From a virus: a stretch of DNA of 64,000 nucleotides. The position numbers were made by a program, and so were the translations under genes. A model generated the notes under the pieces. The model did not search any database. It had not been told where the DNA came from and saw only the letters and a program-made list of their open reading frames with translations. Of this stretch, positions 2,816 through 55,521 are shown piece by piece; position 1 is the first letter of the stretch, and each line of letters starts with the position of its first letter. The stretch is from the IMG/VR virus record IMGVR_UViG_3300031133_000417, positions 970 to 64,969 of that record; one strand, 5' to 3'.

Positions 2816-5800
2816 TTAAGCGCCTGGACCTAGTACACTATCTATAATTGAACCGTTCTGTATGACTAAATGATAAACTTGAGTACCTAGAGAGTAATCA
2901 ACGTTTCTGTTCAGAGGAGCTACGCCATTTACAACAGTCATTCCTGCCCCAGAAATACTGGATAAAACATTACCGTTTACATCTATAATTTCTACAACTC
3001 CAGTAGTTTGAATCTTCTTTCTACCAAGTGTGGTAAAACCATCTGCACTTTTGTTTACGCCAATTGATATTCCTGGCCCCATTGTAGCGTACCTATATTG
3101 CGCCCCTGCTCTACCCAAATAATCAGCAGGATAAATCACAGTTCCATCAGGCGCGATAGCTGTTACAGGTTCGGCATTACTTAAATAATTACCTTCTCTT
3201 GCACTGTCATCATCATGCACAATCAACGGTACCCCGCCTGCACTTACTATTTTAATGTTGTTATCCGAACCATTGATCTCTACATGCTTAATACCGGCCT
3301 CAGCAGTTCTAACACTTCTAACGGTGAGGTTATCAATCGTTGCTGCAGAAGCTAACAATAAACCTGTAGCGATGCTATCAAACTGTGCTCCTATACTGTT
3401 CCATTTGGTAATGTCCGTCGGTAATACTCCGGTGAATGTCCCTGCATCTGACCTGGTTAAATACCATAATCCATTATAAAAAGCAGCTTCCACTTTTAAA
3501 GCTGTACCATGATACTCTTTGGTTGCCGAATAGTTGCCTGTGTTCGCCAGGGCTGCACCTGTCGCACCTTGCATACCGCTGACTCTTACAGGCGTAGACC
3601 ATGAACCTACAAGTGAAGATAAATCTTGATAAGCCTGATCTTCTGGTGCTGGTGTCCATGGGTCAGAAACTGCGCCTTTTTGTATTTTTAAATTCGTAAT
3701 AGAAAACGAAACTTGCGGAATATTACTTATATCTACAAACTGGTAATTATTTACGTCATTAACATCAAATGTTAATGAGAAAGGCGTTATTGTGTTTGCA
3801 GCTACAAAAACGTTTTGAGGGCTTCCGTCGCATATATCCACTGCTGCAGTGAATTGCTGATTTGAAGACATGCCCCCTGAAATAGTCCACTTACCATTAC
3901 TTTTAATAATATTCCGAATACGTATATTTCCCCCACCTCCGGGCTGACCTACGGTATATATCCCGTTAGTGGATCCATTCCCAGGATTACCATGGCCTGT
4001 TTGAGATACGTTTGTTCCTAAAATAGAAATTGTTGTTCCGAAAAAATTTCTACCACCATCAGGCGGCATCTTCAATGCGCTGATCATCCAGAGATACTCT
4101 CCTGTATTTATGACGGGCTGACTCAGTGACCATATCGCAGTATTAAGGTCCGTGATTGTCAATGCCGGCGGCGTTGTGGTACTCCCATTTTTCGCATACC
4201 GCAACTGTGTAAACATAGAGGTACTACCAGCAGTCCCAGACGAACCGGCTGCTCCTGTACCACCAACAGAAGCATAAATATCCCAGTATACATCATCAAC
4301 AGGTGTATGTCCAGCTATCGGTGTATTGTTAACAAATAACCATTGAGTTCCATTATACAAAACAGTATCTCCCTTGTAGTAAGTTACAGAAGAGCTGTAT
4401 GCACCTCTGTAACTTGGAAGAGGCACCACAATACCGGACCCGCTCTGAATCAAAGCACCGCGCAGACTTAAAGCGTTAGCAACAGATATACCGTAATCCC
4501 ATCCGCTGGCAGTTGTACCAAAATTGGCGGTACCGTTGGTAAGGTTAATGAAGTTCAGTCCATCCAGTGACTTTAGTATACCAGCAGTGATCTGGTCACC
4601 GATAATAAAGGTCATACCATGAGTAAATTCGTAATCCCTACGGCCATCTACTACAGTGAATAATACACCGGTTTGGAAGTGCCAAAAACCAGATACAGCC
4701 TCAACATTTATAATCTGATCAGTCACCACCCAGACACCCGTAAGTGCGTTTCGAGTAACTTTGGCATATACATAATATGTCTTTGCCGGATCCAGGTTAT
4801 TGAAATTCTGCGCAGCCATTTCCCATACGAACCCTAAACCATCGATTTGCAATGCGTAATGGACCAGCTGACCTGCACCAACATTGAAGTTCGCAGGATT
4901 ACCGGCTACGTTAGGTTTAAATGTAGTGCCCTTCAGAGCAAAATTTGTCCACTTCGCACCGACAGCCAGATAAAGCGTTTCCACACTGGCAGCTTTTAGC
5001 ATATCGGCATACAACTTATTGTCAGAAGGGTCAACAATGAAATTTTTAACCTCCGACAATGTTGTTGAGTTTCGACGTGCTCGAGCAATATCATATACCT
5101 GATTCTGAGCGAGCGCCTTATCCAGTTTCACTTCTTTGCCGATCTCCTGAATAATAGGCGACCCTTTGATAGTGGTATTGGATAATTTAAGATTCGTGTA
5201 CTTGAATTCCTCATGTAGATCTCGGGTAAAGCCAATCATCCGGATGTCTGCATCCAGTAATAAATCGAAAGCAGTTACATGAGCTGTGTCGCCTAAGTTC
5301 AATCTGGTTTTATTACGGGTAAACATGAACCAATCCGGCACCACACCGAAGGTGTATTTTGGAGCTGACTCAGCATCAAAATAAGCCTGTCCTCTGTTAG
5401 CAATTTTCTGTTCTCCAGCATCCACGTAGGTTTGCGGCATCTGGATATCAATGAAACGATACTTATCACCTACTTTTGGTTTTAGTGTAGCAGAAGGCAT
5501 AGGAAAAGATGTCTCAGCTTCGTTTTTTAGAAAAGTGACTGTTTTAGTTGTATTGTTGTAACCGCTTTTAGCAATTTCAAACTGATAACCCGCAAGACTG
5601 CCAGTTTGAAATTCTACCTTCGCAGATAGGCCAGCGTAAACCTGGAGATTAACATCGAAATCAATAGATGAATCAGAAAATTGATATATAGTATCTACGG
5701 ATGTTACGGTGCCGATCCTATCGGGCATTACATCTTCAAAGGTGATCGAAGCCTCAATTTCTTCAGATCCATATTTCGGCCCCTGAATGTAGCCAAGTGC

Positions 5801-10021: not shown

Positions 10022-10474
10022 TTAACCGTTTCCGTCTAAAATTTCTGTTGTTATTGATTGATTTTCTGCACCGAAGCATTTTGTAATGGTGAGTGTGAAT
10101 CGAGCAATCATATTAGTTCCGGATCCGTACCATGTGAATGGTGACATCTTTTTTAGCCGCACGCTATATGATTTACCTGTCAATGGAAAAGACAGGGTCT
10201 TGAAACCGTTTTTTTTGAATTCAGCCTTAAGCAGGTCTTTTTTACTGATGATATCGGCAACAGAGGTTCCTTTTATATACACGTTAAAATCCACGTCAGT
10301 GTCCTGGTACACTATAGGAGCGGAGGAATACTCTAATCCCGGGCGCTCAGGCCAGTTGTAAGATTCGGTTTCTTTTAAATCACCTGCATCTTCAAATTTT
10401 TTGATACCATCTTCGATATGCAGCCCAAAAGTTGTATATAATCCAAGCTGATTAAGTGTTCCTTGATCTGTCAT
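10022..10474 (-). CDS. Distal tail (Dit-like) protein
   Basis: 150 aa, immediately after the tape measure gene, YNWPERPG motif. Confidence 0.65.
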   Translation of the reverse strand: MTDQGTLNQLGLYTTFGLHIEDGIKKFEDAGDLKETESYNWPERPGLEYSSAPIVYQDTDVDFNVYIKGTSVADIISKKDLLKAEFKKNGFKTLSFPLTGKSYSVRLKKMSPFTWYGSGTNMIARFTLTITKCFGAENQSITTEILDGNG

Positions 10475-13400
10475 AATCCACCGTAACCTGAGCCTTGTTT
10501 GATATCCGTAACGCTTACAATTTTGTTATCCATAGATGCCAGTGATTTTTCAATATTTGCCAGTCTGCCAGTATTTTCGGCGGTGCGAAGCGTGTTTGCT
10601 TCAATCCTAAGTGCGCTTTCCAAATGAGATCTGGATACGTTAAGCTGTTCAATCGCATTCAAACCCATCGGACGTATGATTTCATTTGTCTCCATCTGGG
10701 TTATCCTGAATCCGTTGAATAATCCAGATAATTTATCTGCCTGATCAACTGTGATGGAGGAGATTTTACCAGATAAGGTATCTGTAGAGGTAGTCCCGCT
10801 GCCTGACAAATCAGACCCGGTTATCTTTTGAAGATCTTCATATTGTTTAGCGGCATCATCGGTGAATGCTTTAAAAAGAGCTTGCAGGTCAGCTATTTTA
10901 GCATCGGTCAATCCTCCATCAGATTGCGATTGCTTTACAAACTCCTGGTAAAACTTATCTACACCTTCAGCAAGAACCTTATTTTTGAACACGCTATTAG
11001 CCGCATCATCCATGGTTTGCTTAAAGAAGTCAGCCAGATCCTGCGCGCTGGCCTTCCCGTTTTTAAACATGTCGGCCAGTGTATTGGTCAGGTTATCAGA
11101 TGTAGTGCCGGTAAACAGTTCCGCAGTACTCTCGGCCAGGTCCCTAATGGCCTGATCAGCATCGTACCCTTTTTGTTCAAGCTCAACCAATCGCTCAACC
11201 AGAGTCTTTGCATTCCCTTCCAGTTTGCCCTGTGAAAGTAGTTGAGAAAGTTCACTGAAATCTTTACCTCCAAGGCTGGCAGTGGTTTTCTCTACTTTAG
11301 CCTTACGGAACCAGGTACCATGAGTATAGGTTTCGCCAGTAACATAACTTTGCCCGCTAAGCTGGGCCATGATTTCATCAGCTTCCTTTTTATATGCTGC
11401 AGTCTGCTCTTTTCTGATGGCAACCTCTTCCAAGATACCTTTAAGCGCAGAGCTGTTGTTTTTTGCATTGAGAATAGCGCGTTCCTTCAGTTGTTCCTGA
11501 TATTCTCTTTCGCCTGCGATCGCGTTTGTATAATAGTCAGCAACCTCTTGACGGGCCGCAGCATTCATTTCTTTTACCTTTTTTCCAATTGAAAGAACAG
11601 AGGTTACAGCGCTAATCGTCTTAGTGACACCGCCTATGATATCTCCCGAAGAGAAAGAAGCAAAAGCGCCTGCAGCATCTGAACCGGCCTGAGCAAGTTT
11701 ACCAAAGGTGTCCAATGCATAGCCAGCTTCTGTGTCAACCCCTCCTAATGCTTCAGATAATTCACTGAAGCCACTGGCCGCTCTACCAAGATCGTTCGAT
11801 AATCCTTCCGCGACTTCTTTAGTGCTTCCTTTTAAGTATTTAAATTGTTCAGATATCTTATCCCCGAAATTTACCTTGCCATCACCATTTACATCCAGCT
11901 TATCAAGAGCAAGTTGCACCTCAACAATATCCTTTAGCGTCTGTTTCTTTTGATCCGGACTGATAAGACTATTGCCCTTTTCGTCAGTAGCATTGAGCTT
12001 AGTTTTAAGATCATTCAGCTTTTCAGACAAAATGTTCAGGTTTGCCTGATCGGTACCTACTTTCAGTGTAAGCTTGAGGCCTTCTACCTGCGATTTGATC
12101 TTTTGCGTAACGTCATCAGGAAGATCGGCGGCAGCAAGGATCTTATCAAGTGCTTTAATCTGCTCGTCCACTTGATCCCTGGTAAGCAATATTGTTTCCT
12201 GCGATAATTTCTTATAGATAGCAGTACGCGCCAAGTACTCATCATTGGCAGCCGAAATGAGATTATCGCGTTGATAGTTTAATTGAACTTTCTCGTCATC
12301 GGTTATTGTAGCTCTTAGGTCATAGGCTTTTTTCTGAAAATCTTTATTTATCCTTTCTAACTTTTGAGAATGAGTTAGTGCAGCTTGATACGCCTCTGCA
12401 TAATCAGCATCGCGTTTAGTGGCAATACCCTTCTGAGCCTCTTCAATTCTTTTGGCTCCAGCTTTAAATTCTTCTTCTTCAGGACCTGATAAATTATTCT
12501 TACCAGTTAATGTTCCCACTACGTTTTTAAAAATGAGTTTGGAGTATCGATCTTTTAATGCATCAAGGTATGTTGTACTGGTATCAAGTTCGTCTGCAAA
12601 CCGTTGCTTTGCACTGGCCTCTCCAAACATCCGTTTCCAATTCTCATACGCCTCATAAGCATCTTTCTGCTTAGTGATAGCAAATTCGAACCTGGCTGTT
12701 TCCTGACGATAGTCAAGATCTTCCAGAGCAGCTTTACGTATAGGCTCAATCTGGGCAGTAGTTTCTTTGGGGCCTAATACTGATAGCGCTTTTGCAGCAC
12801 CGTATTTCTTGGCGTATTCATCATATTTCTTACCCTGCTGTTCAATATCGAATGCAAGCTTTTTAAATTCATCAACAATGGCCTGTCTGGCCTCCTGCTC
12901 TTTAGTCAGGCCTTGACGCTCGAACTTGTCTTTAAGAACCTGAATCCTTTGCTGCAAACTTTCCTGAGCACTTAATGCAGCAGAGTCTGCAGCGTCTTGT
13001 CTTTCTTGTGCTCTACGAAGTTTATCAGCAGCTTTTCGCTCGGCTTCTTCAGCTTTGCCGTCATCCGTTTTGGTTATTTTAGCAAACTCCTCATTTTCCT
13101 TTTGCCTCTTGGCAAGGAGCTGACCGCTGTCAGACGCTAAAAGGGCTTCGTATTTAGCCTTTTCTTTTATTAAAGTTTGATAAGAGCCTACAATTGTTTT
13201 AACCTCCTTAGCGGTCGCGTCACGGAATGTTGTTAGGCCACCGCCAAACTGTCCCTGAGAGGTAGTCTCAGGAATTTTGAATGTTCCTGACTTGGCAATT
13301 TCATCAATAGACTTTTTGACGCCTGGTATCCTCCTGTTCAGATCATCAATTTTATTTGTGGTAGCCTCAATTCTGTCCGCATTTATAGCTTGAAGAATCA

Positions 13401-15153
13401 GTACTTGCTGATCGATGAATTCTTTTGCCCTAGTTGTGCTGATGGAAATTGCATTACCATATTTATCGAACTGTGTGATAGCTGTTGGTATCTCCTCACC
13501 GACCTGTTTAATGATGTCCTTCATCAAGGATTGTTCAACCTTGTTTAATTTTGTGACACCTCCATTTTTAGCCGCTTTTTCAGATAATTCGTCATACTTT
13601 GATAGGAGGGGTGAGATGTTTCGTTGCAGTGATTGGACTTGCAATCCAGTTTCATAGAACTCTTTGTTGGCTTCCCGAACAGCATCATAATTAAGGACAA
13701 GGTTAATCTTTTGTCCAACGAGCTCTTTTACATTAGCAATTTTAGTTGCAAACTGAGCCATCTTATCTGCGGTGGTCTCTGTAACCTCCCCCATGGATTT
13801 AAGCTTGGCTTCAACGACATTACCAACCGCTGTTTGAAAATCACCAGTTTTTTTAATCTCAGCACGCAATTGTACTTGTGAAATCTGAAGATTATCCAGG
13901 ATGAGCAGGGACTTACGCCCCAGCCCATTTACGAAACTATCCGTTAAATAAGTTACATCCTGTCCAGTTTGCCGGGAGACTTTACCCGCCAGCTCTAATC
14001 CTTTTGCAAGAAGCTCCGGGGCAATCTGAAAGTTTTTTGCACGTAACGCCGCAGCCATCAAATCAATATCTGATGTAGCACCGCGGGTTGCCGTTCTCAA
14101 CAGTTGTAGCGTTTTTCCATTATCTAGCTTAGCGAAGGCTTCACGGATACCCTCACCTCTTGCAGCAAGTTCCCTTGCTTCCTTTGCCCAGCTGATGATC
14201 ATTTGAACACTGAACGCCGCGAGGATGGCCGCGCCTATAGATTTCAACGTGTTGACGAATTTCTGGGAAGCAGTATCAGCCACTACAATCTTATTTCCAA
14301 GATCATCAAATCCCTTTTTCCCGGCATTCGCCAATCGGTTAAGCTGCTCTTCAGTTTCTTGGATTTTGCGATTTAATGAAACGAAGGATTGTGGTGCCTT
14401 GGCAAACTGCAGCTGGTCCTGAAAATATTTCAGCCTGTTCGTAAGGATTTCCTGCTGTCCAATAGTAGATTTGATCCGGTTACCCAGTTCATCATATCCA
14501 CGCTTACCAATATTATTTAGCTTGGCAATTTCTGCTTGAGCCTCTTGAATTTTCTTTGTGTATTCAGCAATCACCGCCGGATCGGTAGTGCTGCTTTTTA
14601 TATTTTGGTAGGACTGTACCTTGAGTTTCCAACTGTCCTCGGCCACGATAGCGTTCTTTATTGCTTCAGTGGTCTTATTGGTGGAATCCGTTGCAACCCT
14701 ATTTGCATCAGCTGCAGCAGTCCCAAACGCCGCAGCTTGGTTCGCTGCTTTATTATATTCTTCCGCGGTACCTACAACTGGACCAGTGGTTATAGATCCG
14801 GTTTTACCTGAATTACTTGCATTGACCTCATCCAGTGAACTTGTCATTTGGACAGGCTTAATCTGCAAGCCGGTCACAGCATCAAAGGCTGCTTTTTTCC
14901 TTTTGATAGCCTCAGTTGATTTGTCGATCGCCTTGACTTCTTCGTTAACAGAATTAACTACTTCCAGAGACACTGACTTTTGATCCTGAGTAACTTTTAC
15001 AGCCTTCTCCCTGGCTTTAACCTCTGAATCTACGCCCTTGGCAATTTCCTTGGAAATCTGGTCATTGGCATCCTTTGAATACTTCGCTACATTGGCTAAA
15101 GTCTTCTTAAGTTCCGCGTCATCACCGGTGATTTTGAAGTTTAATTCGGGCAT
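10471..15153 (-). CDS. Tail tape measure protein
   Basis: 1560 aa, Ala/Lys/Glu-rich helical sequence, located before Dit and tail proteins. Confidence 0.93.
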   Translation of the reverse strand: MPELNFKITGDDAELKKTLANVAKYSKDANDQISKEIAKGVDSEVKAREKAVKVTQDQKSVSLEVVNSVNEEVKAIDKSTEAIKRKKAAFDAVTGLQIKPVQMTSSLDEVNASNSGKTGSITTGPVVGTAEEYNKAANQAAAFGTAAADANRVATDSTNKTTEAIKNAIVAEDSWKLKVQSYQNIKSSTTDPAVIAEYTKKIQEAQAEIAKLNNIGKRGYDELGNRIKSTIGQQEILTNRLKYFQDQLQFAKAPQSFVSLNRKIQETEEQLNRLANAGKKGFDDLGNKIVVADTASQKFVNTLKSIGAAILAAFSVQMIISWAKEARELAARGEGIREAFAKLDNGKTLQLLRTATRGATSDIDLMAAALRAKNFQIAPELLAKGLELAGKVSRQTGQDVTYLTDSFVNGLGRKSLLILDNLQISQVQLRAEIKKTGDFQTAVGNVVEAKLKSMGEVTETTADKMAQFATKIANVKELVGQKINLVLNYDAVREANKEFYETGLQVQSLQRNISPLLSKYDELSEKAAKNGGVTKLNKVEQSLMKDIIKQVGEEIPTAITQFDKYGNAISISTTRAKEFIDQQVLILQAINADRIEATTNKIDDLNRRIPGVKKSIDEIAKSGTFKIPETTSQGQFGGGLTTFRDATAKEVKTIVGSYQTLIKEKAKYEALLASDSGQLLAKRQKENEEFAKITKTDDGKAEEAERKAADKLRRAQERQDAADSAALSAQESLQQRIQVLKDKFERQGLTKEQEARQAIVDEFKKLAFDIEQQGKKYDEYAKKYGAAKALSVLGPKETTAQIEPIRKAALEDLDYRQETARFEFAITKQKDAYEAYENWKRMFGEASAKQRFADELDTSTTYLDALKDRYSKLIFKNVVGTLTGKNNLSGPEEEEFKAGAKRIEEAQKGIATKRDADYAEAYQAALTHSQKLERINKDFQKKAYDLRATITDDEKVQLNYQRDNLISAANDEYLARTAIYKKLSQETILLTRDQVDEQIKALDKILAAADLPDDVTQKIKSQVEGLKLTLKVGTDQANLNILSEKLNDLKTKLNATDEKGNSLISPDQKKQTLKDIVEVQLALDKLDVNGDGKVNFGDKISEQFKYLKGSTKEVAEGLSNDLGRAASGFSELSEALGGVDTEAGYALDTFGKLAQAGSDAAGAFASFSSGDIIGGVTKTISAVTSVLSIGKKVKEMNAAARQEVADYYTNAIAGEREYQEQLKERAILNAKNNSSALKGILEEVAIRKEQTAAYKKEADEIMAQLSGQSYVTGETYTHGTWFRKAKVEKTTASLGGKDFSELSQLLSQGKLEGNAKTLVERLVELEQKGYDADQAIRDLAESTAELFTGTTSDNLTNTLADMFKNGKASAQDLADFFKQTMDDAANSVFKNKVLAEGVDKFYQEFVKQSQSDGGLTDAKIADLQALFKAFTDDAAKQYEDLQKITGSDLSGSGTTSTDTLSGKISSITVDQADKLSGLFNGFRITQMETNEIIRPMGLNAIEQLNVSRSHLESALRIEANTLRTAENTGRLANIEKSLASMDNKIVSVTDIKQGSGYGGL

Positions 15154-15161
15154 GCCACGAA

Positions 15162-15177
15162 ATTACCCTTTGGTAAT
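15162..15177. promoter_or_regulatory. ATTACC-N4-GGTAAT palindrome
   Basis: Same motif at 23457, 23513, 35780 and 43591; 9 nt upstream of the tape measure ATG. Confidence 0.65.
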
Positions 15178-15197
15178 ACCGAGTAACAGGTGGGGTT

Positions 15198-15220
15198 TTG
15201 ACAATGGTATACATTGTCAA
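15198..15220. promoter_or_regulatory. 23-bp palindromic site, copy 2 (TTGACAATG-GTATA-CATTGTCAA)
   Basis: Identical to the copy at 28771-28793. Confidence 0.75.
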
Positions 15221-15316
15221 TGATTTGCTTATACAGTTTAGGCAAATCGTCGCATAAGTTCAGCAATACACGTTATTTATTGCTAATATTATTAGTATTT
15301 ATTAGATTGCGGCGCT

Positions 15317-15634
15317 ATGAAAACCATGACAATTTACAATCACAAAGACAATGCTGACTGCCTTATCATGACAGTTGCTGATTATGAGGAACTAAAGGGA
15401 AGGATTGCTGATGCACTACTGAGTTTCTTCGATCGTATCGAGTTTGGAACTTATCGAGAGAGTCAAAATTATGAGCTGCTTATTCGTGGGTATCGAAAGG
15501 AATGGGTTGCGATCAATACTTTTTTTATTAAGGACTGGTTCTTAATCTCGCTTGATGAGTTTACATTTGCCATGGAAAACAGGCTATCCTTTTTGCAGAC
15601 CAACTACTCTAAATTATTCCCTGAAACAATATGA
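15317..15634 (+). CDS. Hypothetical protein
   Basis: 105-aa ORF overlapping the next gene by ATGA. Confidence 0.6.
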   Translation: MKTMTIYNHKDNADCLIMTVADYEELKGRIADALLSFFDRIEFGTYRESQNYELLIRGYRKEWVAINTFFIKDWFLISLDEFTFAMENRLSFLQTNYSKLFPETI

Positions 15635-15858
15635 TTGATCGATTTACAATTATTTTAGCTGAAGATGTATGCATTGATGTTCAGCCAGTCGTATCTGGTT
15701 CAGAGATGTCAGCCTATCAGTTATACATTAAAGGGAAGTATCACGGAGAGGTCTACCCGGATCCTGAAAATCCTTTTATTGAATGGAAGTCCCACGATCA
15801 AATTGACCCATACCTGGTGCAGTTGATCGGCCGAGCAATTGAAAATCACAATGCATAA
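15631..15858 (+). CDS. Hypothetical protein
   Basis: 75-aa ORF, translationally coupled. Confidence 0.6.
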   Translation: MIDRFTIILAEDVCIDVQPVVSGSEMSAYQLYIKGKYHGEVYPDPENPFIEWKSHDQIDPYLVQLIGRAIENHNA

Positions 15859-15981
15859 AACAAACCTTACAGAATTTAAGGTTTGTTATGATTGTAATAA
15901 ATTAATTACATCAATAGGTGTATTTAATAACCCCGCTTTTTTATTTTTGAGTAAGAGAATAATCATTAACAATTTTTTATT

Positions 15982-16260
15982 TTGGTACATCCTATTGAAC
16001 AATATGCTATTGATGTAGCTATAAAACTTAGACTTAAACATAAGCTGAGAGGTCAAGACCTTGCAAAAATCTTAAATACCACACGATCGTTTATTGGTAA
16101 TGTGGAAAGCACAATTAATGCTGCAAAATATAATTTAAAACATTTGCATTTAATGGCAGCATATTTTGATGTTTCCCCTAGAATATTTTTACCTCCTGAA
16201 CCTTTTAAGGAACCTTGTGATGATAAAAATCCCCTCATTTTTGAAGGCTTTGATAGTTAG
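15982..16260 (+). CDS. XRE-family HTH protein
   Basis: LRGQDLAKILNTTRSFIGNVES helix-turn-helix pattern. Confidence 0.7.
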   Translation: MVHPIEQYAIDVAIKLRLKHKLRGQDLAKILNTTRSFIGNVESTINAAKYNLKHLHLMAAYFDVSPRIFLPPEPFKEPCDDKNPLIFEGFDS

Positions 16261-16271
16261 ATGGTGTGTGT

Positions 16272-16457
16272 TTATTTAGCTAAATACTTCTTAACAGCCT
16301 CTTGGGAGGACCCCACTTTACTAATAGCCTCCTTAATCTGGGCAGGTGTCACTTTGAATGAATTTGCAGCATATTGCACTTCACTCGGATCATTACTATC
16401 AATCTTACTATCGTCCCTTCCGTCTTGTTTCTTTTTATTGTCTGACATAGTTATCAA
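16272..16457 (-). CDS. DUF3606-like small protein
   Basis: DDSKID..EVQY...F.VT..QIKEAI.KVG.S..AV pattern. Confidence 0.75.
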   Translation of the reverse strand: MITMSDNKKKQDGRDDSKIDSNDPSEVQYAANSFKVTPAQIKEAISKVGSSQEAVKKYLAK

Positions 16458-16506
16458 TTTAGTTCTCCTTTAAAACAACACATGGTTGTATAGGTTTTGA
16501 AAGAAA

Positions 16507-16540
16507 TAAAAAAGCCTCCGTATGACTACGAAGGCTTACT
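16507..16540 (-). terminator. Intrinsic terminator
   Basis: AAGCCT(T/C)CGTA..TACG(G/A)AGGCTT hairpin followed by a T-run on the minus strand. Confidence 0.6.
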
Positions 16541-16604
16541 AAATGTAACCCAGCTGTAAGATCTAACCTGACGTCACTGGATTAATCCGCATCCGCGAAT
16601 ATTG

Positions 16605-16835
16605 TTATCTATACAATTTGTTGGTGTAGTTTTTAGAGTGACGCTCACGATTCTTAAGCCGTTCATTAACCAAAAACAATACAAACTCATCAGCTGATAT
16701 ATTGATTAATGAAAGTATATCAAAAACTCTATTGATCGGAATCCTCAAATTCTTTGCGATGAATTCTAACTTCTCTCCATTGAATGGAAGTATGTTTTTG
16801 ATCTCTAAGGGATTATCGGATAGTTGCATGGCCAT
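16605..16835 (-). CDS. Hypothetical protein (possible HTH)
   Basis: 76-aa ORF followed by a terminator. Confidence 0.5.
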   Translation of the reverse strand: MAMQLSDNPLEIKNILPFNGEKLEFIAKNLRIPINRVFDILSLINISADEFVLFLVNERLKNRERHSKNYTNKLYR

Positions 16836-16966
16836 GTTTAGTACACATACAACTGTACTGTTTACTTATTGTTTTACTTTGCCGCTTTATTATTTAATAC
16901 GATTTGAACGTTCAAACAATTTGCTTTAGATTAGGCACCATGTGCTTTACAACACTAATTCCATTT

Positions 16967-16998
16967 AGGGACGGACCGGTGCGGTCTGTCCCTTTTTG
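16967..16998 (+). terminator. Intrinsic terminator
   Basis: GGGACGGACCG-GTG-CGGTCTGTCCC followed by TTTTT. Confidence 0.65.
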
Positions 16999-17201
16999 TA
17001 TTTATTAAATATAAGCAACTTAACTTTTCCGTAAGGCTCATATTTTTATGATAATTTATTAATTTATCTTTCGTATAAATACTATTCTGAATAAGTAAAT
17101 TGCTTTAACAATCCGTATTTCCACAAGTTCGTTTTGTACTATCTTGGATTATACTACAGAAAATTACTGTATGAAACATTATTCCACTATATACTACGCT
17201 T

Positions 17202-17507
17202 ATGGAGACCTATTCATTTCAACTATTATTTGAAAATTACCATGTACTATATCACCCCCATGTAAAGAACTTTATAATTTTTGAACACCGATTTGATATC
17301 TATGTAATGGTAAAATCGGAAAAGGGGTGGCGTTGTCTCAATAATAAAACTGCAGACCTAAGAAATCTTCCCGTACAAGACCTGTATAATGAGTGTTTGA
17401 AAACAATGCCTTTAAATAAGTCTTTTTTGATTAGCTCTCAAATTGAAAAAAATCGAATTGGTAGCGTACTAAGTGTTGTAAAAAAGATAAAAGTACACCA
17501 GAACTAA
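17202..17507 (+). CDS. Hypothetical protein
   Basis: 101-aa ORF with an AT-rich promoter-like upstream region. Confidence 0.55.
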   Translation: METYSFQLLFENYHVLYHPHVKNFIIFEHRFDIYVMVKSEKGWRCLNNKTADLRNLPVQDLYNECLKTMPLNKSFLISSQIEKNRIGSVLSVVKKIKVHQN

Positions 17508-17702
17508 CCAGCATCTATGCTATTAGGTCCAAAGAATTGCATTTACCCTGCTTAAGCTCAGCGTTCAAGGTGACACCCGGTTACCCGCATTCTTGCGTTG
17601 ATAATTTTGGTAAATTATCAGGATTTATCTTATGACAAGTCAAGTATTTTATTCTGTATTTACAGTATTTTATTTAGATGTATAACCTATATTTTTACTG
17701 AT

Positions 17703-17791
17703 GTAACAACTGGATGGGAGTTATGTTGTCGAACGTTTCTAATGGCGAGTGTACAGAAGGGGGTTCTAATTGCCGCCCTTCTGTTATTTTG
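17703..17791 (+). ncRNA. Candidate sRNA, unit 1 of 3
   Basis: CAGTATTTT 40 nt upstream, TAnnTTTA + 5 nt, GTAAC..GAGTTA 5' hairpin, GAAGGG..CCCTTC 3' hairpin. Confidence 0.6.
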
Positions 17792-17893
17792 ATGGTTTAT
17801 AAATGTTTAAAGGGTATTTGATCGCAGATTATTAGGTATTTACCGGCTCTTTCCAGTATTTTAATTACATCTTTTAGCCCTAAATTTATCATT

Positions 17894-18051
17894 GTAACTA
17901 TCGGAAGAGTTACACATATGGTTTTCGATTCAAGGTGGTAAGTTTCTTACAGACCTGAATTTTCGTCTGATAATCTCTGGATGGAATTATCAATCTAAGA
18001 ACAAATGAGTGTAAGGAAGGGGCTAAGTCATTATGGCCCCTTCTTGATTTC
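17894..18051 (+). ncRNA. Candidate sRNA, unit 2 of 3
   Basis: Same promoter architecture, 5' hairpin and 3' hairpin; longer middle with extra hairpins. Confidence 0.6.
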
Positions 18052-18230
18052 CATTATAAACTCTTTGTTTGATTACTGATTTGATTATTTCTAGTGTTTC
18101 GGTGGTAAACGTTTTTCAGGTATCCTTCTAAGGATCATATTCCCTTTTGCGACTTACCGTGTGAAAATTCAAGTATTTCACGGCCACTACCAGTATTTTA
18201 ATTTAGAAAATTCAACCTAACTTTATGCCA

Positions 18231-18310
18231 GTAACATCCGGAGGGAGTTATTTTTTTCACAAACATGAATAGGGCAATGAAGGGGATCGTAGTTGCTCCC
18301 CTTCATTTTG
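18231..18310 (+). ncRNA. Candidate sRNA, unit 3 of 3
   Basis: Same promoter architecture, 5' hairpin and 3' hairpin. Confidence 0.6.
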
Positions 18311-18316
18311 CTTACC

Positions 18317-18790
18317 TTACCCTCTCAGTGCAATCACTGATTTAATCAACTTTAATGTTTTACTTGTGCAAAGTTCTGATGGCGTTCTTCTAATAATCAC
18401 CCACCCAAGAGACTGAGCCAAGTTTGATTTTTCCATGTCTCTCTGGATGCCGATAGCATAGCTGTAGTCGATTTTGCCTTTTGCCCAAATGCCGCCTTCA
18501 CGCTCAATAGCGATCTTGTATACAGGCAAAGCATAATCAAACCGGCATAGCCGCTCAGTGCTAATGAAATAACTCCAACCAAACATCGCCCCCCCCTTTT
18601 CCATCAACATCATGAATATATCCCGCTATTATGCTTTGTTTTTGATGTTCGCGTTATCATCGATCCAGCAAGTTTTGACGTGTACTATCTCCGCCGTCCG
18701 CTTCGGATTATTCAGACCAATCGAAGCAGGAACGGGCGGGGGCAGCGCTTATCACCGACCAAGACATACCCATGTCCAGGCAATCGTTAA
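18317..18790 (-). pseudogene. Decayed DUF559/Vsr-like endonuclease gene
   Basis: C-terminal RFDYALP.YKIAIE.EGGIW...DMEKSNLAQSLGW is intact; upstream part broken by stops and frameshifts (G-run near 18590). Confidence 0.6.
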
Positions 18791-18847
18791 AAATTACTTT
18801 CAGTTGTGCTTATGAGTTCACTGGAATTTGTATATTAGTTTAAACTG

Positions 18848-19147
18848 ATGTCTATGAAAATTAAAACATACATTCCCGATGGTTTTCCATCTATAATTAT
18901 AGGCGACATTTTACCTATTAAATTGTCGTCCGAGGAGATCCCTATAGGAAAGGCCATACTTATTGAAAGAAGTAATTCTTACTATCAATTTGACTTAAGT
19001 CTTAACCATGAAGTAAGCCTCGACCTATATCCCTCTATACAGCAATCGTCAACTAATGGCATCATTGACGGGCCTCCCTCGCTAAGTTTATCGACAAATT
19101 CACAAGGTGGATTTGCTACTTCGCTCAGAGACCAGGTTAACGGTTAA
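18848..19147 (+). CDS. Hypothetical protein
   Basis: 99-aa ORF with ATG start. Confidence 0.55.
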   Translation: MSMKIKTYIPDGFPSIIIGDILPIKLSSEEIPIGKAILIERSNSYYQFDLSLNHEVSLDLYPSIQQSSTNGIIDGPPSLSLSTNSQGGFATSLRDQVNG

Positions 19148-19235
19148 GGGTCAACTTTATGCATGCATTTTAACACGGTTGCTAGTTGAAGTGTTCGTTT
19201 CTGTTCTCGTTAATATTTATTCCTGCTTTAGGTTA

Positions 19236-19462
19236 ATGAGTAATATTGTTTTAAAGCTGCTTACGGTGATGACAAAAAGGATGTGGAACTGTCCTCACCT
19301 TTTGGTGGCGGTGGTCACTATCACATCTATATCGATCGGTTTTACTATGGTGCCATTATCTCAATTGAGGGCCAGTGGAGAGTTGCTTTAAATCCTAAAG
19401 CCGATGAAGAGCTGACAACTGATGACCGGATGATACTTGTTGACCTCCTAACTGGGAATTGA
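19236..19462 (+). pseudogene. Small gene split by a -1 frame offset at T-TTA-AAG (pseudogene or programmed frameshift)
   Basis: ATG frame MSNIV-LK; the -1 frame from 19250 gives a protein-like 70-codon ORF (FKAAYGDDKKDVELSSPFGGGGHYHIYIDRFYYG...). Confidence 0.5.
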
Positions 19463-19696
19463 TTTACTTTCCAGACTGAGCAAACACTGTTTCGTTCCTT
19501 TCGGGTAATCCTTCTCATGTATACCAATATCCCTGAGACACTTAACATATCCATCTACAAATCCAGCGCTGATAAGCAGCTTCTGACCATATGTATAGTC
19601 ATCGCTTAATTTATTGTAATAGAAATCCCGGGTTACATACAGATGCTGAAATCTGGCTTTGATCAGGTATAGTTTTTTAAAAAGTTTGATGATCAT
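19448..19696 (-). CDS. Hypothetical protein
   Basis: Likely start MIIKLFKK at 19696, overlapping the upstream micro-gene. Confidence 0.55.
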   Translation of the reverse strand: MIIKLFKKLYLIKARFQHLYVTRDFYYNKLSDDYTYGQKLLISAGFVDGYVKCLRDIGIHEKDYPKGTKQCLLSLESKSIPS

Positions 19697-19841
19697 CCTC
19701 CTTCCCAATAACACGTTCCGTCTCCTTATCAATCTCAGCAGTCATCTTTTTCCACGCAACATTGACACCCCAGATGATTAGTCCTACTATAATCAGCGCA
19801 GATACACCGATCAGCGATTCTTTTGAATAAAATATGTTCAT
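19677..19841 (-). CDS. 54-aa single-TM protein
   Basis: MNIFYSKESLIGVSALIIVGLIIWGVNVAWKK...; TGATG coupling; below the ORF-track cutoff. Confidence 0.6.
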   Translation of the reverse strand: MNIFYSKESLIGVSALIIVGLIIWGVNVAWKKMTAEIDKETERVIGKEDDHQTF

Positions 19842-19960
19842 CACTTTTCAAATATTAAATGGTAATTCACCAGGATAGAAAGCACAAGCAAGAAAAGACA
19901 GATTACTATCCACTTCCACGGCGGTGTATCCTGGCCGGATCCGTGAGCAGTTAAACTCAT
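19841..19960 (-). CDS. 39-aa single-TM protein
   Basis: MSLTAHGSGQDTPPWKWIVICLFLLVLSILVNYHLIFEK; ATGA coupling. Confidence 0.6.
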   Translation of the reverse strand: MSLTAHGSGQDTPPWKWIVICLFLLVLSILVNYHLIFEK

Positions 19961-20139
19961 GGCAGTTTCGATTTAGGGTTAGACGTTGGGATGCGAGAGT
20001 GATCAGGGAAAGATTCAACCAATTTCGCCAATGCAGTGCGATATAACTGCTTATTCATTGCATATATGACTCCTGTTCCCGCCATGAGCACAGCTAAAGC
20101 GACCAGAGCAGCCGCAATTGTTTTCTTGATCTCTTTCAT
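19957..20139 (-). CDS. 60-aa single-TM protein
   Basis: Hydrophobic TIAAALVALAVLMAGTGVIYAM; coupled to neighbours. Confidence 0.65.
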   Translation of the reverse strand: MKEIKKTIAAALVALAVLMAGTGVIYAMNKQLYRTALAKLVESFPDHSRIPTSNPKSKLP

Positions 20140-20321
20140 CGTTTCTCCTTTTTCGCCTGTTTAATCAGGATATCCATATTCTGTTTAATGTAATCGGTAT
20201 ACCGGCCGGCTTTTTCATTGTCATAAAGAAACAGCAGGTATTTTGCTGGTACACTCACCAGCGGATAGTCTTTGTATTTACCCCACTGCATACGGCTATT
20301 GTCGTTTATATCTTCTGTCAT
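20136..20321 (-). CDS. DUF3820/ExoX C-terminal-like small protein
   Basis: M.WGKYKD.PL..VPAKYL.FL motif. Confidence 0.7.
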   Translation of the reverse strand: MTEDINDNSRMQWGKYKDYPLVSVPAKYLLFLYDNEKAGRYTDYIKQNMDILIKQAKKEKR

Positions 20322-20323
20322 TG

Positions 20324-20887
20324 TTAGGAAGCTATAAGTTTTAAAAAAGTCTTGTTCTTAACGTCACCACGCAACATTTTCCCTAAATGCCTCCCTGTAA
20401 TGCCATGTGCATAGGCTGCAATTTTTATTGTAGGGAACTCTTCTCCTGTATTGATGTTTATTACACCCATTGCCCTGGAAGTGTTCCCCCCATAAAGTTT
20501 AGGGGTTAAGCCACTTACATATGCGTGTTTGGCATTTTCATTACGCGTACACCATTCCAGATTGTTTACGTGATTATTCGTCTTAATGCCGTCCTTATGA
20601 TTTACTAAAGTTCTCACTGGATCAATTGTATGAAAACCCATAGCAACCAATCTATGCACCGTCATTGTCCTTCCGTTGCTCGATCTGAATAGGGACACTA
20701 TAGAGTACCCGGCTTTATTTACACCTGGTTTCAACATTCTCTCATTAACCTTTTTAGATATGGTCCTATTGTCTTGAAGAACTTTGTCAACATTTCTTGA
20801 GACGGATTTCACTCGGCCAAGGTTGCTGACCTGATATAACCCTTCAAAGTTTTGAATATCTACCCACTTTTCAATTCTATCTTCCAT
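20324..20887 (-). CDS. NUMOD4-HNH homing-type endonuclease
   Basis: W.DI..FEGLYQVSNLGRVKS (NUMOD4); VHRLVA..F..VNHKDG.KTNN..NLEW (HNH). Confidence 0.9.
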   Translation of the reverse strand: MEDRIEKWVDIQNFEGLYQVSNLGRVKSVSRNVDKVLQDNRTISKKVNERMLKPGVNKAGYSIVSLFRSSNGRTMTVHRLVAMGFHTIDPVRTLVNHKDGIKTNNHVNNLEWCTRNENAKHAYVSGLTPKLYGGNTSRAMGVININTGEEFPTIKIAAYAHGITGRHLGKMLRGDVKNKTFLKLIAS

Positions 20888-20889
20888 CT

Positions 20890-21183
20890 CTAATAAGGAT
20901 CAATTTCCAATTCATCACTATTCAGAGCATCCAACATCCGGAAGCACATGGCTGCAGTTTGAATGCATTCGTTTTTAAGCACGCTTAACGAACCTTTGCC
21001 TTCATCCAGTAGGTTTGCCTCTCTGATAAGTTCGCCGGATTCCTCGGCTACTATTGCAGCACGTTTCACATTGTCAACCGGCCACTCAGGATGCTTATGA
21101 ATTGCTCGCTGCATTTCAGCCAGCACCATAACCACCGCCCCGGCCATTTCGGGATTCTTTACAAGTAAATTTAATTCCGTCAT
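20890..21183 (-). CDS. MazG-like (all-alpha NTP pyrophosphatase) protein
   Basis: EESGEL...ECIQTAAM helical acidic motifs. Confidence 0.55.
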   Translation of the reverse strand: MTELNLLVKNPEMAGAVVMVLAEMQRAIHKHPEWPVDNVKRAAIVAEESGELIREANLLDEGKGSLSVLKNECIQTAAMCFRMLDALNSDELEIDPY

Positions 21184-50448: not shown

Positions 50449-50739
50449 TTATTTTCTTCTTTTTGATTTGTAGTAATCCTCTTCGATGAAGGCATCCAGG
50501 TCTTTCCTCTTGAAAATAAGCTTTCCACCTTTTGTGCTGCAGCCTATGTCGAACTTATGATCTGTTATCCAATCCCTGCTAAATCCTGTGATATCCATTA
50601 CTTCTTGAGCAGTCAGGTATGGCCTTTTGGACTGTTTTAATTCATCTGCCATGCCCTCAACTCTGTCACTTAATTTTTCTATCTTAGAAATGAGAAGCAG
50701 GACTGCTTCTGTTTCGATGATCGATACTCCAGTTATCAT
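50449..50739 (-). CDS. Excisionase-like HTH (MerR/HTH_17) protein
   Basis: PYLTAQEVMDITGFSRDWI...GGKLIFKRKDLDAF. Confidence 0.8.
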   Translation of the reverse strand: MITGVSIIETEAVLLLISKIEKLSDRVEGMADELKQSKRPYLTAQEVMDITGFSRDWITDHKFDIGCSTKGGKLIFKRKDLDAFIEEDYYKSKRRK

Positions 50740-51017
50740 TTTTTGATCTTAAAATAATTTCTGCACATATATTCATCGACATCTTCTTTCTTGAACCTAA
50801 GGCACCCACCGACAGTGGTAAATCCTATATCCTGCTTATTAGCGGTAACCCATGACTTGCCAAATCCAGTTATTTCCATTACGTCCTCTGTAGTCAAGTA
50901 AGGCTTATATGCACCTTTTAATTCCGACATGGTAGAGTTTACCATCTCAGCGAGAATGGCGACTGATCCAACCAAATCTTTTAAGGTCTTTGTTTCTACA
51001 AGTGATATTCCTTCCAT
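50736..51017 (-). CDS. Excisionase-like HTH protein (paralogue)
   Basis: PYLTTEDVMEITGFGKSWV...GGCLRFKKEDVDEY. Confidence 0.8.
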   Translation of the reverse strand: MEGISLVETKTLKDLVGSVAILAEMVNSTMSELKGAYKPYLTTEDVMEITGFGKSWVTANKQDIGFTTVGGCLRFKKEDVDEYMCRNYFKIKK

Positions 51018-51268
51018 TATTTATTCCTCCAAACTTTTAAGTATTCAAAATCCCTTTTCAGCTTCACGTTGCCGAGAACCTCTTTAATCGTCTCGTATTC
51101 CCTATCAGGGAACTCTATGCGGATATCTTTGCTAATCAATGGCGCTACCTTCATTCGGTCTGCATACCAGAAATAAATAGGCTTCTTTATCTCATCCAAT
51201 TTCCTTAGTGGCCCTATCCAAGTGAATTTCTCCTTTGGAGCCTCAATCACGTTCACTACCATATCCAT
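51017..51268 (-). CDS. Hypothetical protein
   Basis: 83-aa coupled ORF. Confidence 0.6.
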   Translation of the reverse strand: MDMVVNVIEAPKEKFTWIGPLRKLDEIKKPIYFWYADRMKVAPLISKDIRIEFPDREYETIKEVLGNVKLKRDFEYLKVWRNK

Positions 51269-51843
51269 TTTATTATTCCTTTCTTCGTTGCGAAATACAC
51301 ATATTCGGCCCGGGTGCTCATGCCGGTTTTAGCTTTCATGTTCTGCCAGTGCTTTTTTAAAGTAGAGATTGAGATAAATAGGTCGTCAGCGATCCTCTTA
51401 TTGGAAAGCATTGCCTTTTTAAGGATGTTAACTTCCATTTTCGTAAGCGAACCATTCTTTACCTTGATACTGCAGCATAGTTTTCCTTCCGCTTTACAAG
51501 CCCCTCTGAAACCACAATCGAAATATTCTGATTCACCCATATTACCATTCACATCGATATCTGGATTAGGGTCTAATCCTCCGTACTTGCAAAAGGCATA
51601 GTGCTTCAGGTAATCTTCTTTTGTAATACCTTTCATTTGGCTAAGGGAACGCATGGCAATCGGGTTCTTAGCAAGATCCTGCTCAAGCTTTAATTTTATC
51701 CATTCTGGGAATTCAGAGAACGAATTGTAGACGATTCCCATATTAATGCACCTGACGTCAATTATCCCCTTCTCTGCGAAGAACTCGACGCCGTTATCAA
51801 TCATGCCGGCGAAATGGTTGTTTTTGTATTGAGCTGTTAACAT
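51256..51843 (-). CDS. LuxR-type HTH regulator (first early gene, Cro position)
   Basis: C-terminal LTKMEVNIL...SNKRIADDLFISISTLKKHWQNMKAK; Cys cluster upstream. Confidence 0.8.
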   Translation of the reverse strand: MLTAQYKNNHFAGMIDNGVEFFAEKGIIDVRCINMGIVYNSFSEFPEWIKLKLEQDLAKNPIAMRSLSQMKGITKEDYLKHYAFCKYGGLDPNPDIDVNGNMGESEYFDCGFRGACKAEGKLCCSIKVKNGSLTKMEVNILKKAMLSNKRIADDLFISISTLKKHWQNMKAKTGMSTRAEYVYFATKKGIIKWIW

Positions 51844-51914
51844 ATAGTCCTTTATAAGTATATGCCTAGTAGGCGTTTTATATTATCTTTGTTGTGTTGT
51901 ACAATACAAATATG

Positions 51915-52005
51915 ATTAGAAATATTTTCTATTGCAATAGATTATTAGACATTTAATCTAATAAAACCACATCTATCTGATTATTAGATAGATTTATTTT
52001 CTATT
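51915..52005. promoter_or_regulatory. Three CI operator-like sites (A/G)(T/A)TAGA-N7-TCTA(T/A)T
   Basis: 51915-51933, 51944-51962 and 51987-52005, between the divergent switch genes. Confidence 0.65.
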
Positions 52006-52752
52006 ATGAGTATCAAAAACAGAATTAAAGAATTCATATTATCATTAGGGATTGAGACTAAGGCATTTGAAATAGCTGCCGGACTATCAAATGGCTTCGT
52101 AAATAATATTGGGCAGAGCATAAGAGAAAAGTCTATGAATCAAATTCTGTCAGTTTACCCGGAACTCAATAGAAATTGGCTTCTAACTGGGGAGGGCAAC
52201 ATGCTTGTACAAAATTCAAAATCTAACGCAATCGATCTCGGAGAGCTACCGAGCAATTTTGAATTAGATGAGACTCCATTTATAGAATTACCAGGAGGAG
52301 ATATATTAATGGTATTTCCACTAGTGGAAGAATCTGCCTATGCAGGTTACTTAAATGGTTACGCCGATCCAGAGTTTATAGAGCAGAGACCAAAACATAG
52401 TTTGATAGTGCAGAAGTACCATAAGGGATTATATAGAGGATTTGAAATAGTCGGAGATAGTATGGACAATGGTACGATTGAAAGTATTCCCGACAAAAGT
52501 AAAGTCACAGGCAGATTTTTAATGCACCACCATTGGGAGAACAAATTACACCTTCATAGGTATAAAGATTTTATAATCGTCCATAAGACAGATGGTATTA
52601 TTGCAAAGCGTATAATAAAACATAATGTCGAAGAGGGAATAATTTTAATTCACTCTCTCAACCCAGATAAGGAGTCCTATCCAGATAAGGAAATACACTT
52701 GAATGATGTAAAAGAATTATATAATATAATTGACGTTTCGATAAGAAGATAA
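52006..52752 (+). CDS. CI-like repressor (HTH + S24 peptidase)
   Basis: N-terminal HTH, LNRNWLLTGEG linker, GDSM and IAKRI catalytic motifs. Confidence 0.9.
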   Translation: MSIKNRIKEFILSLGIETKAFEIAAGLSNGFVNNIGQSIREKSMNQILSVYPELNRNWLLTGEGNMLVQNSKSNAIDLGELPSNFELDETPFIELPGGDILMVFPLVEESAYAGYLNGYADPEFIEQRPKHSLIVQKYHKGLYRGFEIVGDSMDNGTIESIPDKSKVTGRFLMHHHWENKLHLHRYKDFIIVHKTDGIIAKRIIKHNVEEGIILIHSLNPDKESYPDKEIHLNDVKELYNIIDVSIRR

Positions 52753-52762
52753 ACAAGATGAA

Positions 52763-53320
52763 ATGAAATTACTAACTACATTAATTCTAAGCTGTGCAAC
52801 CTTAATAGCATCAGCACAAGAATTTAAGCCAGATAACAATACCGTAAGTGCGTTTAAAGACCAGCCAGCTCACCTTCTTGATACTGTAATTACAAGCACT
52901 CTTACAAAACAACAGCTTTATAGCAATTCGCTATCCTACATTTCATCTTCGTTTAGAAATAGCAAAAAGAGCATAGAAAGTAAGGATTTAGAACTTGGGG
53001 AACTTTCCTTCGTAGGATCGGCTATTGTTTCTGTGCAGGACAGTAGTGAACAAAAGCTTAAAAAGAAAACTGTATATGTTCACACGGATCGCGACTTGAC
53101 TCTACACTTCAAATGCAGAATATATGTAAAGAACCAGAAAGCCAAAATTGTCTTGTCATCTTTAAAGTATGATTACTATATATCAGATGATCAATCAATA
53201 AGGATAGCCCCGACCCGCTCTGATGTCTTCAAGGGTAATGATGTAGCAGCTACATTGGCAATAGATATTATCAAGGACATTGCATCGTCTTTGAATAAGA
53301 AGCCTGAAAACGAATTTTAA
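52763..53320 (+). CDS. Exported DUF4468-like protein
   Basis: Signal peptide; LTKQQLYSN..YI and F.C.I.VK..KAKI pattern. Confidence 0.65.
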   Translation: MKLLTTLILSCATLIASAQEFKPDNNTVSAFKDQPAHLLDTVITSTLTKQQLYSNSLSYISSSFRNSKKSIESKDLELGELSFVGSAIVSVQDSSEQKLKKKTVYVHTDRDLTLHFKCRIYVKNQKAKIVLSSLKYDYYISDDQSIRIAPTRSDVFKGNDVAATLAIDIIKDIASSLNKKPENEF

Positions 53321-53332
53321 TACAGAAAAAAC

Positions 53333-54710: not shown

Positions 54711-54827
54711 ATATGAATATGCACATCTCTGAAAAACCGTTTTCCAAAGATGGGTGTGGATGGGGAGACAAATCGGGTTCTAGACCTATTCTCCCCAATA
54801 AAACAATAAATTCGATTGTAAAAAAGG

Positions 54828-55295: not shown

Positions 55296-55342
55296 AATCC
55301 TAATTTTTTAAATTGAAAATTTGATTAATTATGCGCGGCAAC

Positions 55343-55451: not shown

Positions 55452-55521
55452 AACTTAGTGTAGAATTAATAGAAGAATCTCCTCCCTTGTACAGCTTTTG
55501 ATCATTGCTGCCCCTAAATTA

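Follow-up and report, generated by a model that had tools for sequence, protein, structure and literature searches.

What might three short units without genes be doing in the genome of a temperate phage, when each of them has promoter-like blocks, a small stem-loop and a terminator-like hairpin in the same arrangement? The units lie in a stretch of 64,000 nucleotides, called here the window, which covers positions 970 to 64,969 of the 65.6-kb IMG/VR provirus record IMGVR_UViG_3300031133_000417. They are arranged in tandem on the + strand, at 17642-17791 (unit 1), 17814-18053 (unit 2) and 18171-18313 (unit 3). An original prediction, made from the sequence alone, described them as self-contained and co-regulated promoter-RNA-terminator units of a Bacteroidota phage, with a constant scaffold and a variable body, and the computational analysis reported here supports that description in silico. 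On balance, and with moderate confidence, we hypothesise that the units are activator-dependent genes for small non-coding RNAs (sRNAs), in which a variable body follows a 5' handle common to all three. Three observations extend the original prediction: the units are cassettes that have been shuffled, the array lies in a hypervariable cargo slot, and direct repeats in front of each unit point to an activator-dependent promoter.

Architecture of the units

The positions at which the shared motifs had been reported are all correct. The word CAGTATTTT starts at 17663, 17854 and 18191, and GTAAC follows 40 nt further on in each case (17703, 17894 and 18231). A further GTATTT is found upstream, at 17644, 17836 and 18173, which is 21, 20 and 20 nt before the respective CAGTATTTT sites, and a TAnnTTTA box (17690-97, 17881-88 and 18218-25) ends 5 nt ahead of GTAAC. 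The sequence GAGTGTA is seen before the final hairpin of units 1 and 2, and the extra internal hairpin of unit 2, CTGGATGGA, is located at 17969-17991.

In an ungapped three-way alignment from -5 to +75, in which position 0 is the first letter of CAGTATTTT, 30 of the 80 columns are invariant, compared with the 6.3 expected from base composition. A scan of these 30 positions over both strands of the window gives 30/30 at 17663, 17854 and 18191 only, with a runner-up of 21. The invariant blocks are CCAGTATTTTAWTT at 0 to +12, TAnnTTTA at +27 to +34, GTAAC at +40 and GGA.G at about +50. The motif RTAAY-N2-5-GGA-N1-5-RTTAY has four + strand sites within 17703-17990 and a single site elsewhere, compared with about one expected per shuffled window, and hairpins of the type GAAGGG...CCCTTC are found in the window only in these three units, one at each unit end. 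Folds of the whole units have z-scores of -2.4 to -3.3. The shared architecture exceeds chance. The units are paralogues and owe their similarity to duplication, and the informative point is that conservation falls in discrete blocks, which are spared in orthologous variants too.

Promoters of the Bacteroidota sigma-A(Bfr) type have the consensus TAnnTTTG for the -7 box and TTTG at -33 (as cited in PMC7366714). The -7 boxes of the array are TATTTTTA (17690..17697, +), TAAATTTA (17881..17888, +) and TAACTTTA (18218..18225, +). All of the units, and the single-unit relative L117 described below, have TAnnTTTA at the same distance from GTAAC, and TTTT 18 nt upstream of the -7 box. Both elements are sub-consensus in every copy, L117 included, with the final G absent from -7 and from -33. 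The conserved blocks would fall at the positions that a Bacteroidota promoter requires, and the predicted start site is at or beside GTAAC.

Upstream of each -7 box there is a control region on the + strand in which a distal RGTATTT lies 20-21 bp 5' of a proximal copy, the two being direct repeats. In unit 1 (17642..17675) the distal copy is AAGTATTTT (17642-50), an extra GTATTTA is present at 17657-63, and the proximal CAGTATTTTATTT block lies over the -33 position. The region of unit 2 (17814..17866) has GTATTT three times, at 17814, 17836 and 17856 (spacing 22 and 20), with a CAGTATTTTAATT block, and that of unit 3 (18171..18203) has a distal AAGTATTTC and a proximal CAGTATTTTAATT with 20 bp between them. 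Such an arrangement, in which the copies are separated by two turns of the helix and the proximal one lies over -33, is that of promoters which depend on an activator of the AraC/XylS or LytTR type. It resembles class II activator promoters with 21-bp repeats, such as AraC I1-I2, XylS Pm and AgrA/LytTR, where a pair of direct repeats is spaced by about two helical turns and the proximal member overlaps the upstream element of a weak promoter. On the basis of this geometry, we infer that one DNA-binding activator, which could equally well be a phage or a host factor, turns on all three units. The RGTATTT repeat matches no motif known to us.

The candidate regulators encoded by the phage are a GerE/LuxR protein, two HTH_17 proteins, a CI-like helix-turn-helix (HTH) protein and a small HTH protein of the island, whose gene is at 15982-16260. 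A match to sigma-70 region 4 in the phage is below threshold. A likely regulatory region is present at 50449-53677, with the GerE/LuxR gene (51256-51843, -), the two HTH_17 genes as an adjacent pair (50449-51017, -) and a CI-like HTH_3 gene (53333-53677, +). It is worth adding that an unrelated viral contig, IMGVR_UViG_3300003154_000175, has at about 5231-5275 two tandem 21-bp repeats with CAGTATTTTATTT in each, and a TATAAT-like box comes after them. The repeat word and its spacing recur there in a setting of the sigma-70 type, perhaps by coincidence.

The RNA predicted for unit 1 is about 88 nt long (17703..17791, +), and consists of a stem-loop (17703-17724), a variable body and a terminator stem (17754-17783) with the tail TTATTTTG. 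That of unit 2, at about 160 nt (17894..18053, +), has a stem-loop (17894-17913), a fast-evolving body, a second copy of the stem-loop (17969-17991) and a terminator stem (18014-18045). The predicted RNA of unit 3 is about 82 nt (18231..18313, +), with a stem-loop (18231-18251), a U-rich body and a terminator stem (18277-18306) followed by the tail TTTGCTT.

The stem-loop was compared in six instances: the 5' copy of each unit, the one inside unit 2 and two from L117. The stem has five base pairs, and all 30 of the 30 cells are standard pairs. There is covariation at two of the pairs, the outer one being G-U, G-C or A-U and the inner one C-G, U-A or U-G. The stem is RUAAY/RUUAY, and the loop has the form YYGGAnG and a length of 10-12 nt. 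Since G-U pairs occur and the loop length varies, an RNA hairpin fits better than a protein-bound DNA palindrome. The 5' hairpin alone is weak, at -2.4 to -6.1 kcal/mol, and its pair probability in full-length folds is 0.02 in unit 1, 0.36 in unit 2 and 0.95 in unit 3, where the stem-loop is the most stable and has a GGAG tetraloop. A speculative possibility is that the handle (GUAAC...CCGGAAGG) mimics the 3' end of 16S ribosomal RNA (helix 45).

The internal stem-loop of unit 2 is possibly the fossil of a fourth unit. The comparison with the promoter of unit 2 itself gives z=3.3, and comparisons with units 1 and 3 are not significant, so that support for such a fossil is weak. A 19-nt repeat of 74% identity connects the spacer before unit 3 (18101-18119) with the body of unit 2 (17934-17952), and a -7-box-like CCTGAATTTT stands ahead of the internal hairpin. 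Together these hint that unit 2 may be a fusion of two ancestral units. On the 5' side of unit 1, at 17611-17630, there is a perfect inverted repeat, GATAATTT-TGGT-AAATTATC, whose arms recur in the internal stem-loop (GATAAT...ATTATC). This repeat might represent an operator, or else a degenerate handle, which would then be the fifth copy.

The terminators have GAAGGGG/CCCCTTC stems of 10-12 pairs, which are G+C-rich and have a T-rich tail on the + strand only. Each unit thereby has at its end the two features of an intrinsic terminator, a G+C-rich hairpin followed by a U tract. A generic terminator scan passes that of unit 2 alone.

No open reading frame (ORF) is shared by the three units, as had been noted before. 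The ATG-initiated frames that they contain have 35, 7 and 26 codons and are unrelated to one another. The stop of the 7-codon frame in unit 2 is absent from L117, where the frame has >20 codons, and the small frames of the other units extend through the terminator stems. The units are therefore treated here as non-coding.

Relatives, exchange of cassettes and phage setting

Pattern scans built on the invariant positions were run on IMG/VR, on one genome for each of 185,579 species and on JGI metagenome contigs. Three patterns (promoter; promoter plus GTAAC-GGA; -7 box plus hairpin) gave only chance or coding matches in IMG/VR, and the promoter-plus-GGA pattern gave two matches in the species genomes, both by chance. 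There were 54 matches in the JGI contigs, of which one is a true relative, the 1026-bp contig L117. A blastn search of the array region against 50,697 phage records returned zero matches. The original prediction did not recognise the family, and Rfam 15 does not contain it: at gathering threshold the whole window matches three tRNAs and nothing else, and at E<=10 the region 17300-18500 gives four noise matches of 13-19 bits, far under the cut-offs. So far, the family is very narrowly distributed, being found in one phage lineage and, in variant form, in four more metagenome runs that belong to three studies.

L117 contains a single unit. Its control region and body are those of unit 2 (window 17782-18022) at 87.7% identity, joined inside the terminator to the terminator and 3' flank of unit 3 (18276-18406) at 96% identity. 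Its upstream DNA is unrelated to the window; by eye, an IS3-like transposase gene ends there and a small ORF lies on the minus strand. Metagenome contigs were also compared over 15000-19500, and came from four other runs in three studies (one rhizosphere, one soil and two unlabelled). Copies identical to unit 1 are present on contigs of three other metagenomes. The contigs also have a diverged copy of unit 2 (the X2 variant), and link unit 2 (from 17796) and unit 3 (from 18066) to different upstream DNA. These junctions, together with that of L117, mark the units out as separable cassettes with borders just past the terminators. An independent assembly of this phage, a Logan contig from run SRR8869678, stops inside the unit-3 terminator, which may reflect assembly breakage at the repeated units.

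The substitutions in these variants are concentrated outside the shared blocks. The promoter and 5' stem-loop region of unit 2 (17827-17915) was analysed using the union of the changes in L117 and X2, because the two share many changes. Substitutions are found at 12/54 of the positions that vary between paralogues and at 0/35 of the invariant positions (one-sided Fisher p=0.0014). Within the control region, 17806-17845 has a single difference from L117, and the spacer 17782-17805 is just 67% identical, compared with about 90% within unit 2. In the terminator of unit 2, the changes of X2 at 18014 and 18015 both keep pairing (A-U to G-U, and G-U to A-U). Because the family is found in one phage lineage, the case for covariation rests on the paralogues, one orthologue and one read-derived variant. 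The expectation of covariation in homologues is therefore only weakly answered, by structure-compatible changes in these two variants and by the block-wise constraint. Structural constraint looks to be limited to the handle, its internal copy and the terminator.

The phage is a temperate siphovirus of Bacteroidota from soil or plant surfaces, and its source sample was from the phyllosphere. Its portal is about 30% identical to those of Porphyromonas, Riemerella, Cellulophaga and Bacteroides phages, so that a Bacteroidota host is well supported. A search of the capsid atlas returned 'viruses' only and gave no finer host taxon, and a portal search of species-genome contigs gave zero matches. Nearly all of the phage genes are on the minus strand, and the array, on the + strand, runs against the late operon. 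The tape-measure gene (10471-15153) lies on one side of it, with an HNH endonuclease gene (20324-20887) and three tRNA genes on the other; the replication and recombination genes are at 40-50 kb.

The array lies within a region (15234..20141) between the tape-measure gene and an accessory operon, with a GC content of 0.34 over 16-18 kb. Six related IMG/VR phages were identified from the tape-measure protein, at 51-79% identity. Nucleotide similarity to the window reaches about 15230 in 5/6 of them, though only about 14590 in L130, and resumes from about 20140-20935 in 4/6; each of the six has it on at least one side, and between these flanks it is zero in 6/6 (L127-L132). The interval of 15.2-20.1 kb is therefore a variable cargo slot, and the array is cargo. 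No units of this type were found in the six relatives, where the slot holds other DNA. In a syntenic prophage on a 1.4-Mb metagenome contig (L063), tRNA genes are present on the opposite strand in the same slot, at 13339-13687, just upstream of the tape-measure gene. They are a Trp-CCA and an unusually long, 93-nt Pro-AGG; near 13760 there is a tRNA-like T-arm of a third, left uncalled by ARAGORN.

The array is surrounded by small ORFs, among which only a weak HTH and a DUF3606 were recognised. Searches of the island proteins against Pfam, PHROGs, PADLOC and NCBIfam found no functional link. Unit 3 is adjoined by a convergent ORF of 98 residues (18317-18613, -). This matches only the C-terminal half (residues 72-167) of a 169-residue family in other phages, at 67% identity, and is therefore a truncated gene; L117 retains only about 30 of its codons beside its unit. 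Homologues of the 98-residue protein sit in other contexts without such units. A neighbouring 101-residue ORF is an orphan among 5.8 billion proteins, and no close relatives of either ORF were found in IMG/VR. Further away, 53961-63418 resembles a second mobile element that is neither phage nor core host, with RadC, DUF3560, UPF0758_N and DUF3800 genes.

Proposed function and alternative explanations

On the basis of these observations, we propose that the prophage carries three independent sRNA genes (about 88, 160 and 82 nt) as 'moron' cargo. The host RNA polymerase with a sigma-A(Bfr)-type factor would read each unit from its own promoter, helped by a shared activator at the RGTATTT repeats. 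The RNA would begin at or beside GTAAC and stop at the GAAGGGG...CCCCUUC intrinsic terminator. Its first 20-22 nt would fold during transcription into the constant handle, which is probably a docking or stabilising element. The differing bodies would give each RNA its own specificity, most plausibly by pairing with transcripts of the host or of competitor phages. This specific division of labour, with a shared docking or stabilising handle and base-pairing bodies that act in trans, is tentative, and we consider it about half as probable as the sRNA hypothesis as a whole.

Several points weigh against the sRNA hypothesis. The RNAs of the units are predictions from DNA sequence. The family is found in one phage lineage only, and the L117 and X2 variants, which have many changes in common, are not independent. 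The 5' stem-loop is thermodynamically marginal and lies outside the minimum-energy fold of units 1 and 2, and the U tracts of the terminators are short. In L117 the body of unit 2 has two stem-breaking changes (17939 and 17942), so that most of this body has no conserved structure. Unlike the class II systems described above, the phage has no AraC-type HTH or LytTR protein among its encoded proteins, and hence no candidate activator of that kind. Finally, Watson-Crick comparison of the three bodies with the phage genome gave complementarities of 11-12 nt at chance frequency, and no phage target stands out.

The functions first suggested for the RNAs fared less well than the architecture. A protein sponge would be expected to present several GGA loops; the three RNAs have 1, 2 and 1, with a pyrimidine and not A before GGA, and there is no CsrA (PF02599) in the phage record. 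Mimicry of a Shine-Dalgarno (SD) sequence is not a common property of the units, GGAGG being present in unit 3 only. A guide or antisense role is disfavoured by the chance-level complementarity to the phage genome, and by the handle not being multicopy in 401 sampled Bacteroidota genomes, where its pattern gives 23 single matches, about as few as the reversed-pattern control.

The best of the alternatives, though an unlikely one, is that the units work at the level of DNA and transcription: as promoter-terminator cassettes resembling the promoter-early stem-loop (PeSL) elements of other phages, they would insulate opposite-strand cargo from the late operon and serve as recombination sites, with the RNAs as by-products. 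Such cassettes would account for an array that opposes late transcription in a hypervariable slot, for the absence of any gene between promoter and terminator, for the deletion or recombination in L117, which falls exactly between two terminators, and for the contig breakpoints just past terminators. However, PeSL elements flank ORFs and these units flank none, and with T tails on the + strand only, late (- strand) transcription would not be stopped. Nor does a pure promoter and terminator role explain a transcribed stem-loop that is conserved, covarying and internally duplicated.

Somewhat less probable again is that the units are antitermination leaders of the lambda PR'-qut-tR' (6S RNA) or AlpA type, in which a factor at the GTATTT repeats permits read-through and the short RNA is the 'off' product. 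In each of the three serial units a promoter with an adjacent factor site does lead through a short leader to an intrinsic terminator, and two HTH_17 (excisionase/AlpA-like) proteins are encoded by the phage, as well as one of the GerE/LuxR type. According to PMC7547250, terminated PR' transcripts can act as sRNAs. Against this, the downstream gene (18317-18613) is convergent, so that read-through would be antisense, and in L117 the unit is followed only by a remnant of that gene. Three full promoters would be superfluous for one operon, no Q-like gene was identified in the phage, and the HTH_17 proteins have no link to these sites.

We regard as doubtful, slightly more so than antitermination, the idea that the cassettes are exchangeable 'programmes' of an undescribed RNA-guided system, in which the GGA handle would load a protein and the bodies would direct it to targets, for example competing phages. 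On this view phages would acquire, lose and recombine cassettes at the terminators, as L117 and the metagenome variants illustrate. A direct relation to CRISPR is improbable, whether as solitary repeat mimics (RNA anti-CRISPRs) or as handle-plus-spacer guides for a Cas12-like or other RNA-guided protein. In units 1 and 3 a constant hairpin handle at the 5' end does precede about 27-30 nt that vary, and the cassettes are shuffled among contexts; but the body of unit 2 has 100 nt, genes for Cas or other RNA-guided nucleases were not recognised beside the array, and neither the IMG/VR scan nor the 401 sampled Bacteroidota genomes provided repeats of which the handle could be a mimic.

To a DNA-level repeat array, such as origin iterons or repressor operators with incidental hairpins, we give the same low standing as to CRISPR. 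The region is AT-rich and its GTATTT direct repeats have a period of 20-22 bp; yet their fixed distance to the -7 box, GTAAC and terminator would be unexpected of iterons, the replication genes are 25 kb off, at 41-50 kb, and the G-U pairs and variable loop length fit RNA. Very small peptide or leader-peptide genes are the least probable of all, because the ATG-initiated frame that each unit happens to have is unrelated to the others, runs through a terminator stem or changes its length in L117, and because Bacteroidota do not depend on SD sequences (PMC7366714).

Comparison with known systems

Regulatory RNAs of phages and prophages are well studied in enterobacteria and almost unknown in Bacteroidota. 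Bacteroidota have no Hfq or ProQ and use non-SD translation starts (PMC7366714). If it is transcribed, the array would offer a compact and testable case of prophage sRNAs under common regulation in Bacteroidota of soil or plants, together with a candidate activator-binding motif (RGTATTT at 20-21 bp spacing) and a small GGA stem-loop that could be used as bait for a new RNA-binding protein. The very narrow distribution restricts its general importance.

The RNAs CsrB/CsrC and RsmX/Y/Z resemble those predicted here in having GGA in hairpin loops and in being small RNAs that end in a terminator. They differ in that the array RNAs have only 1-2 GGA loops, of the form YYGGAnG and not A(N)GGA, and the phage has no CsrA gene; CsrA is not known to be used by Bacteroidota.

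The PeSL repeats of T4-type phages lie between ORFs and have no conserved transcribed motif. Like the array, they are repeated promoter-plus-hairpin modules in a hyperplastic phage region, and recombination between copies alters the cargo, as in L117. In contrast to them, the array units enclose RNA only and keep a covarying 5' stem-loop.

The lambdoid PR'-tR' transcripts (6S RNA and StxS; PMC7547250) also start at a phage promoter, reach a terminator about 80-190 nt on and yield a short RNA in the lysogen. The array differs in having three such units in series, away from the late genes and with a convergent gene downstream, and no Q-type antiterminator was recognised in the phage.

FopS genes are dispersed in the genome. 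The array copies are in tandem, and in this they differ from FopS and GibS, which are described as multicopy sRNAs of Bacteroides, FopS having 14 genes (PMC11697453; PMC7366714). According to PMC11697453, FopS and GibS have been deposited in Rfam, and FopS has a conserved single-stranded 5' seed (R1) directly before its terminator and occurs also on a phage. Like the array as predicted here, these are paralogous sRNA genes of Bacteroidota in which the 5' part is conserved, the downstream part diverges and the end is an intrinsic terminator; their promoters are of the host sigma-A(Bfr) type, as those of the array would be. The array units have no sequence or Rfam match to them, however; their 5' end can form a stem-loop, whereas that of FopS is a single-stranded seed; their promoters have additional direct repeats; and they belong to one phage lineage and not to a genus-wide core set. 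As far as can be judged from sequence, the array is a new sRNA-like family of an ordinary kind, the nearest kind being multicopy sRNA families such as FopS and GibS.

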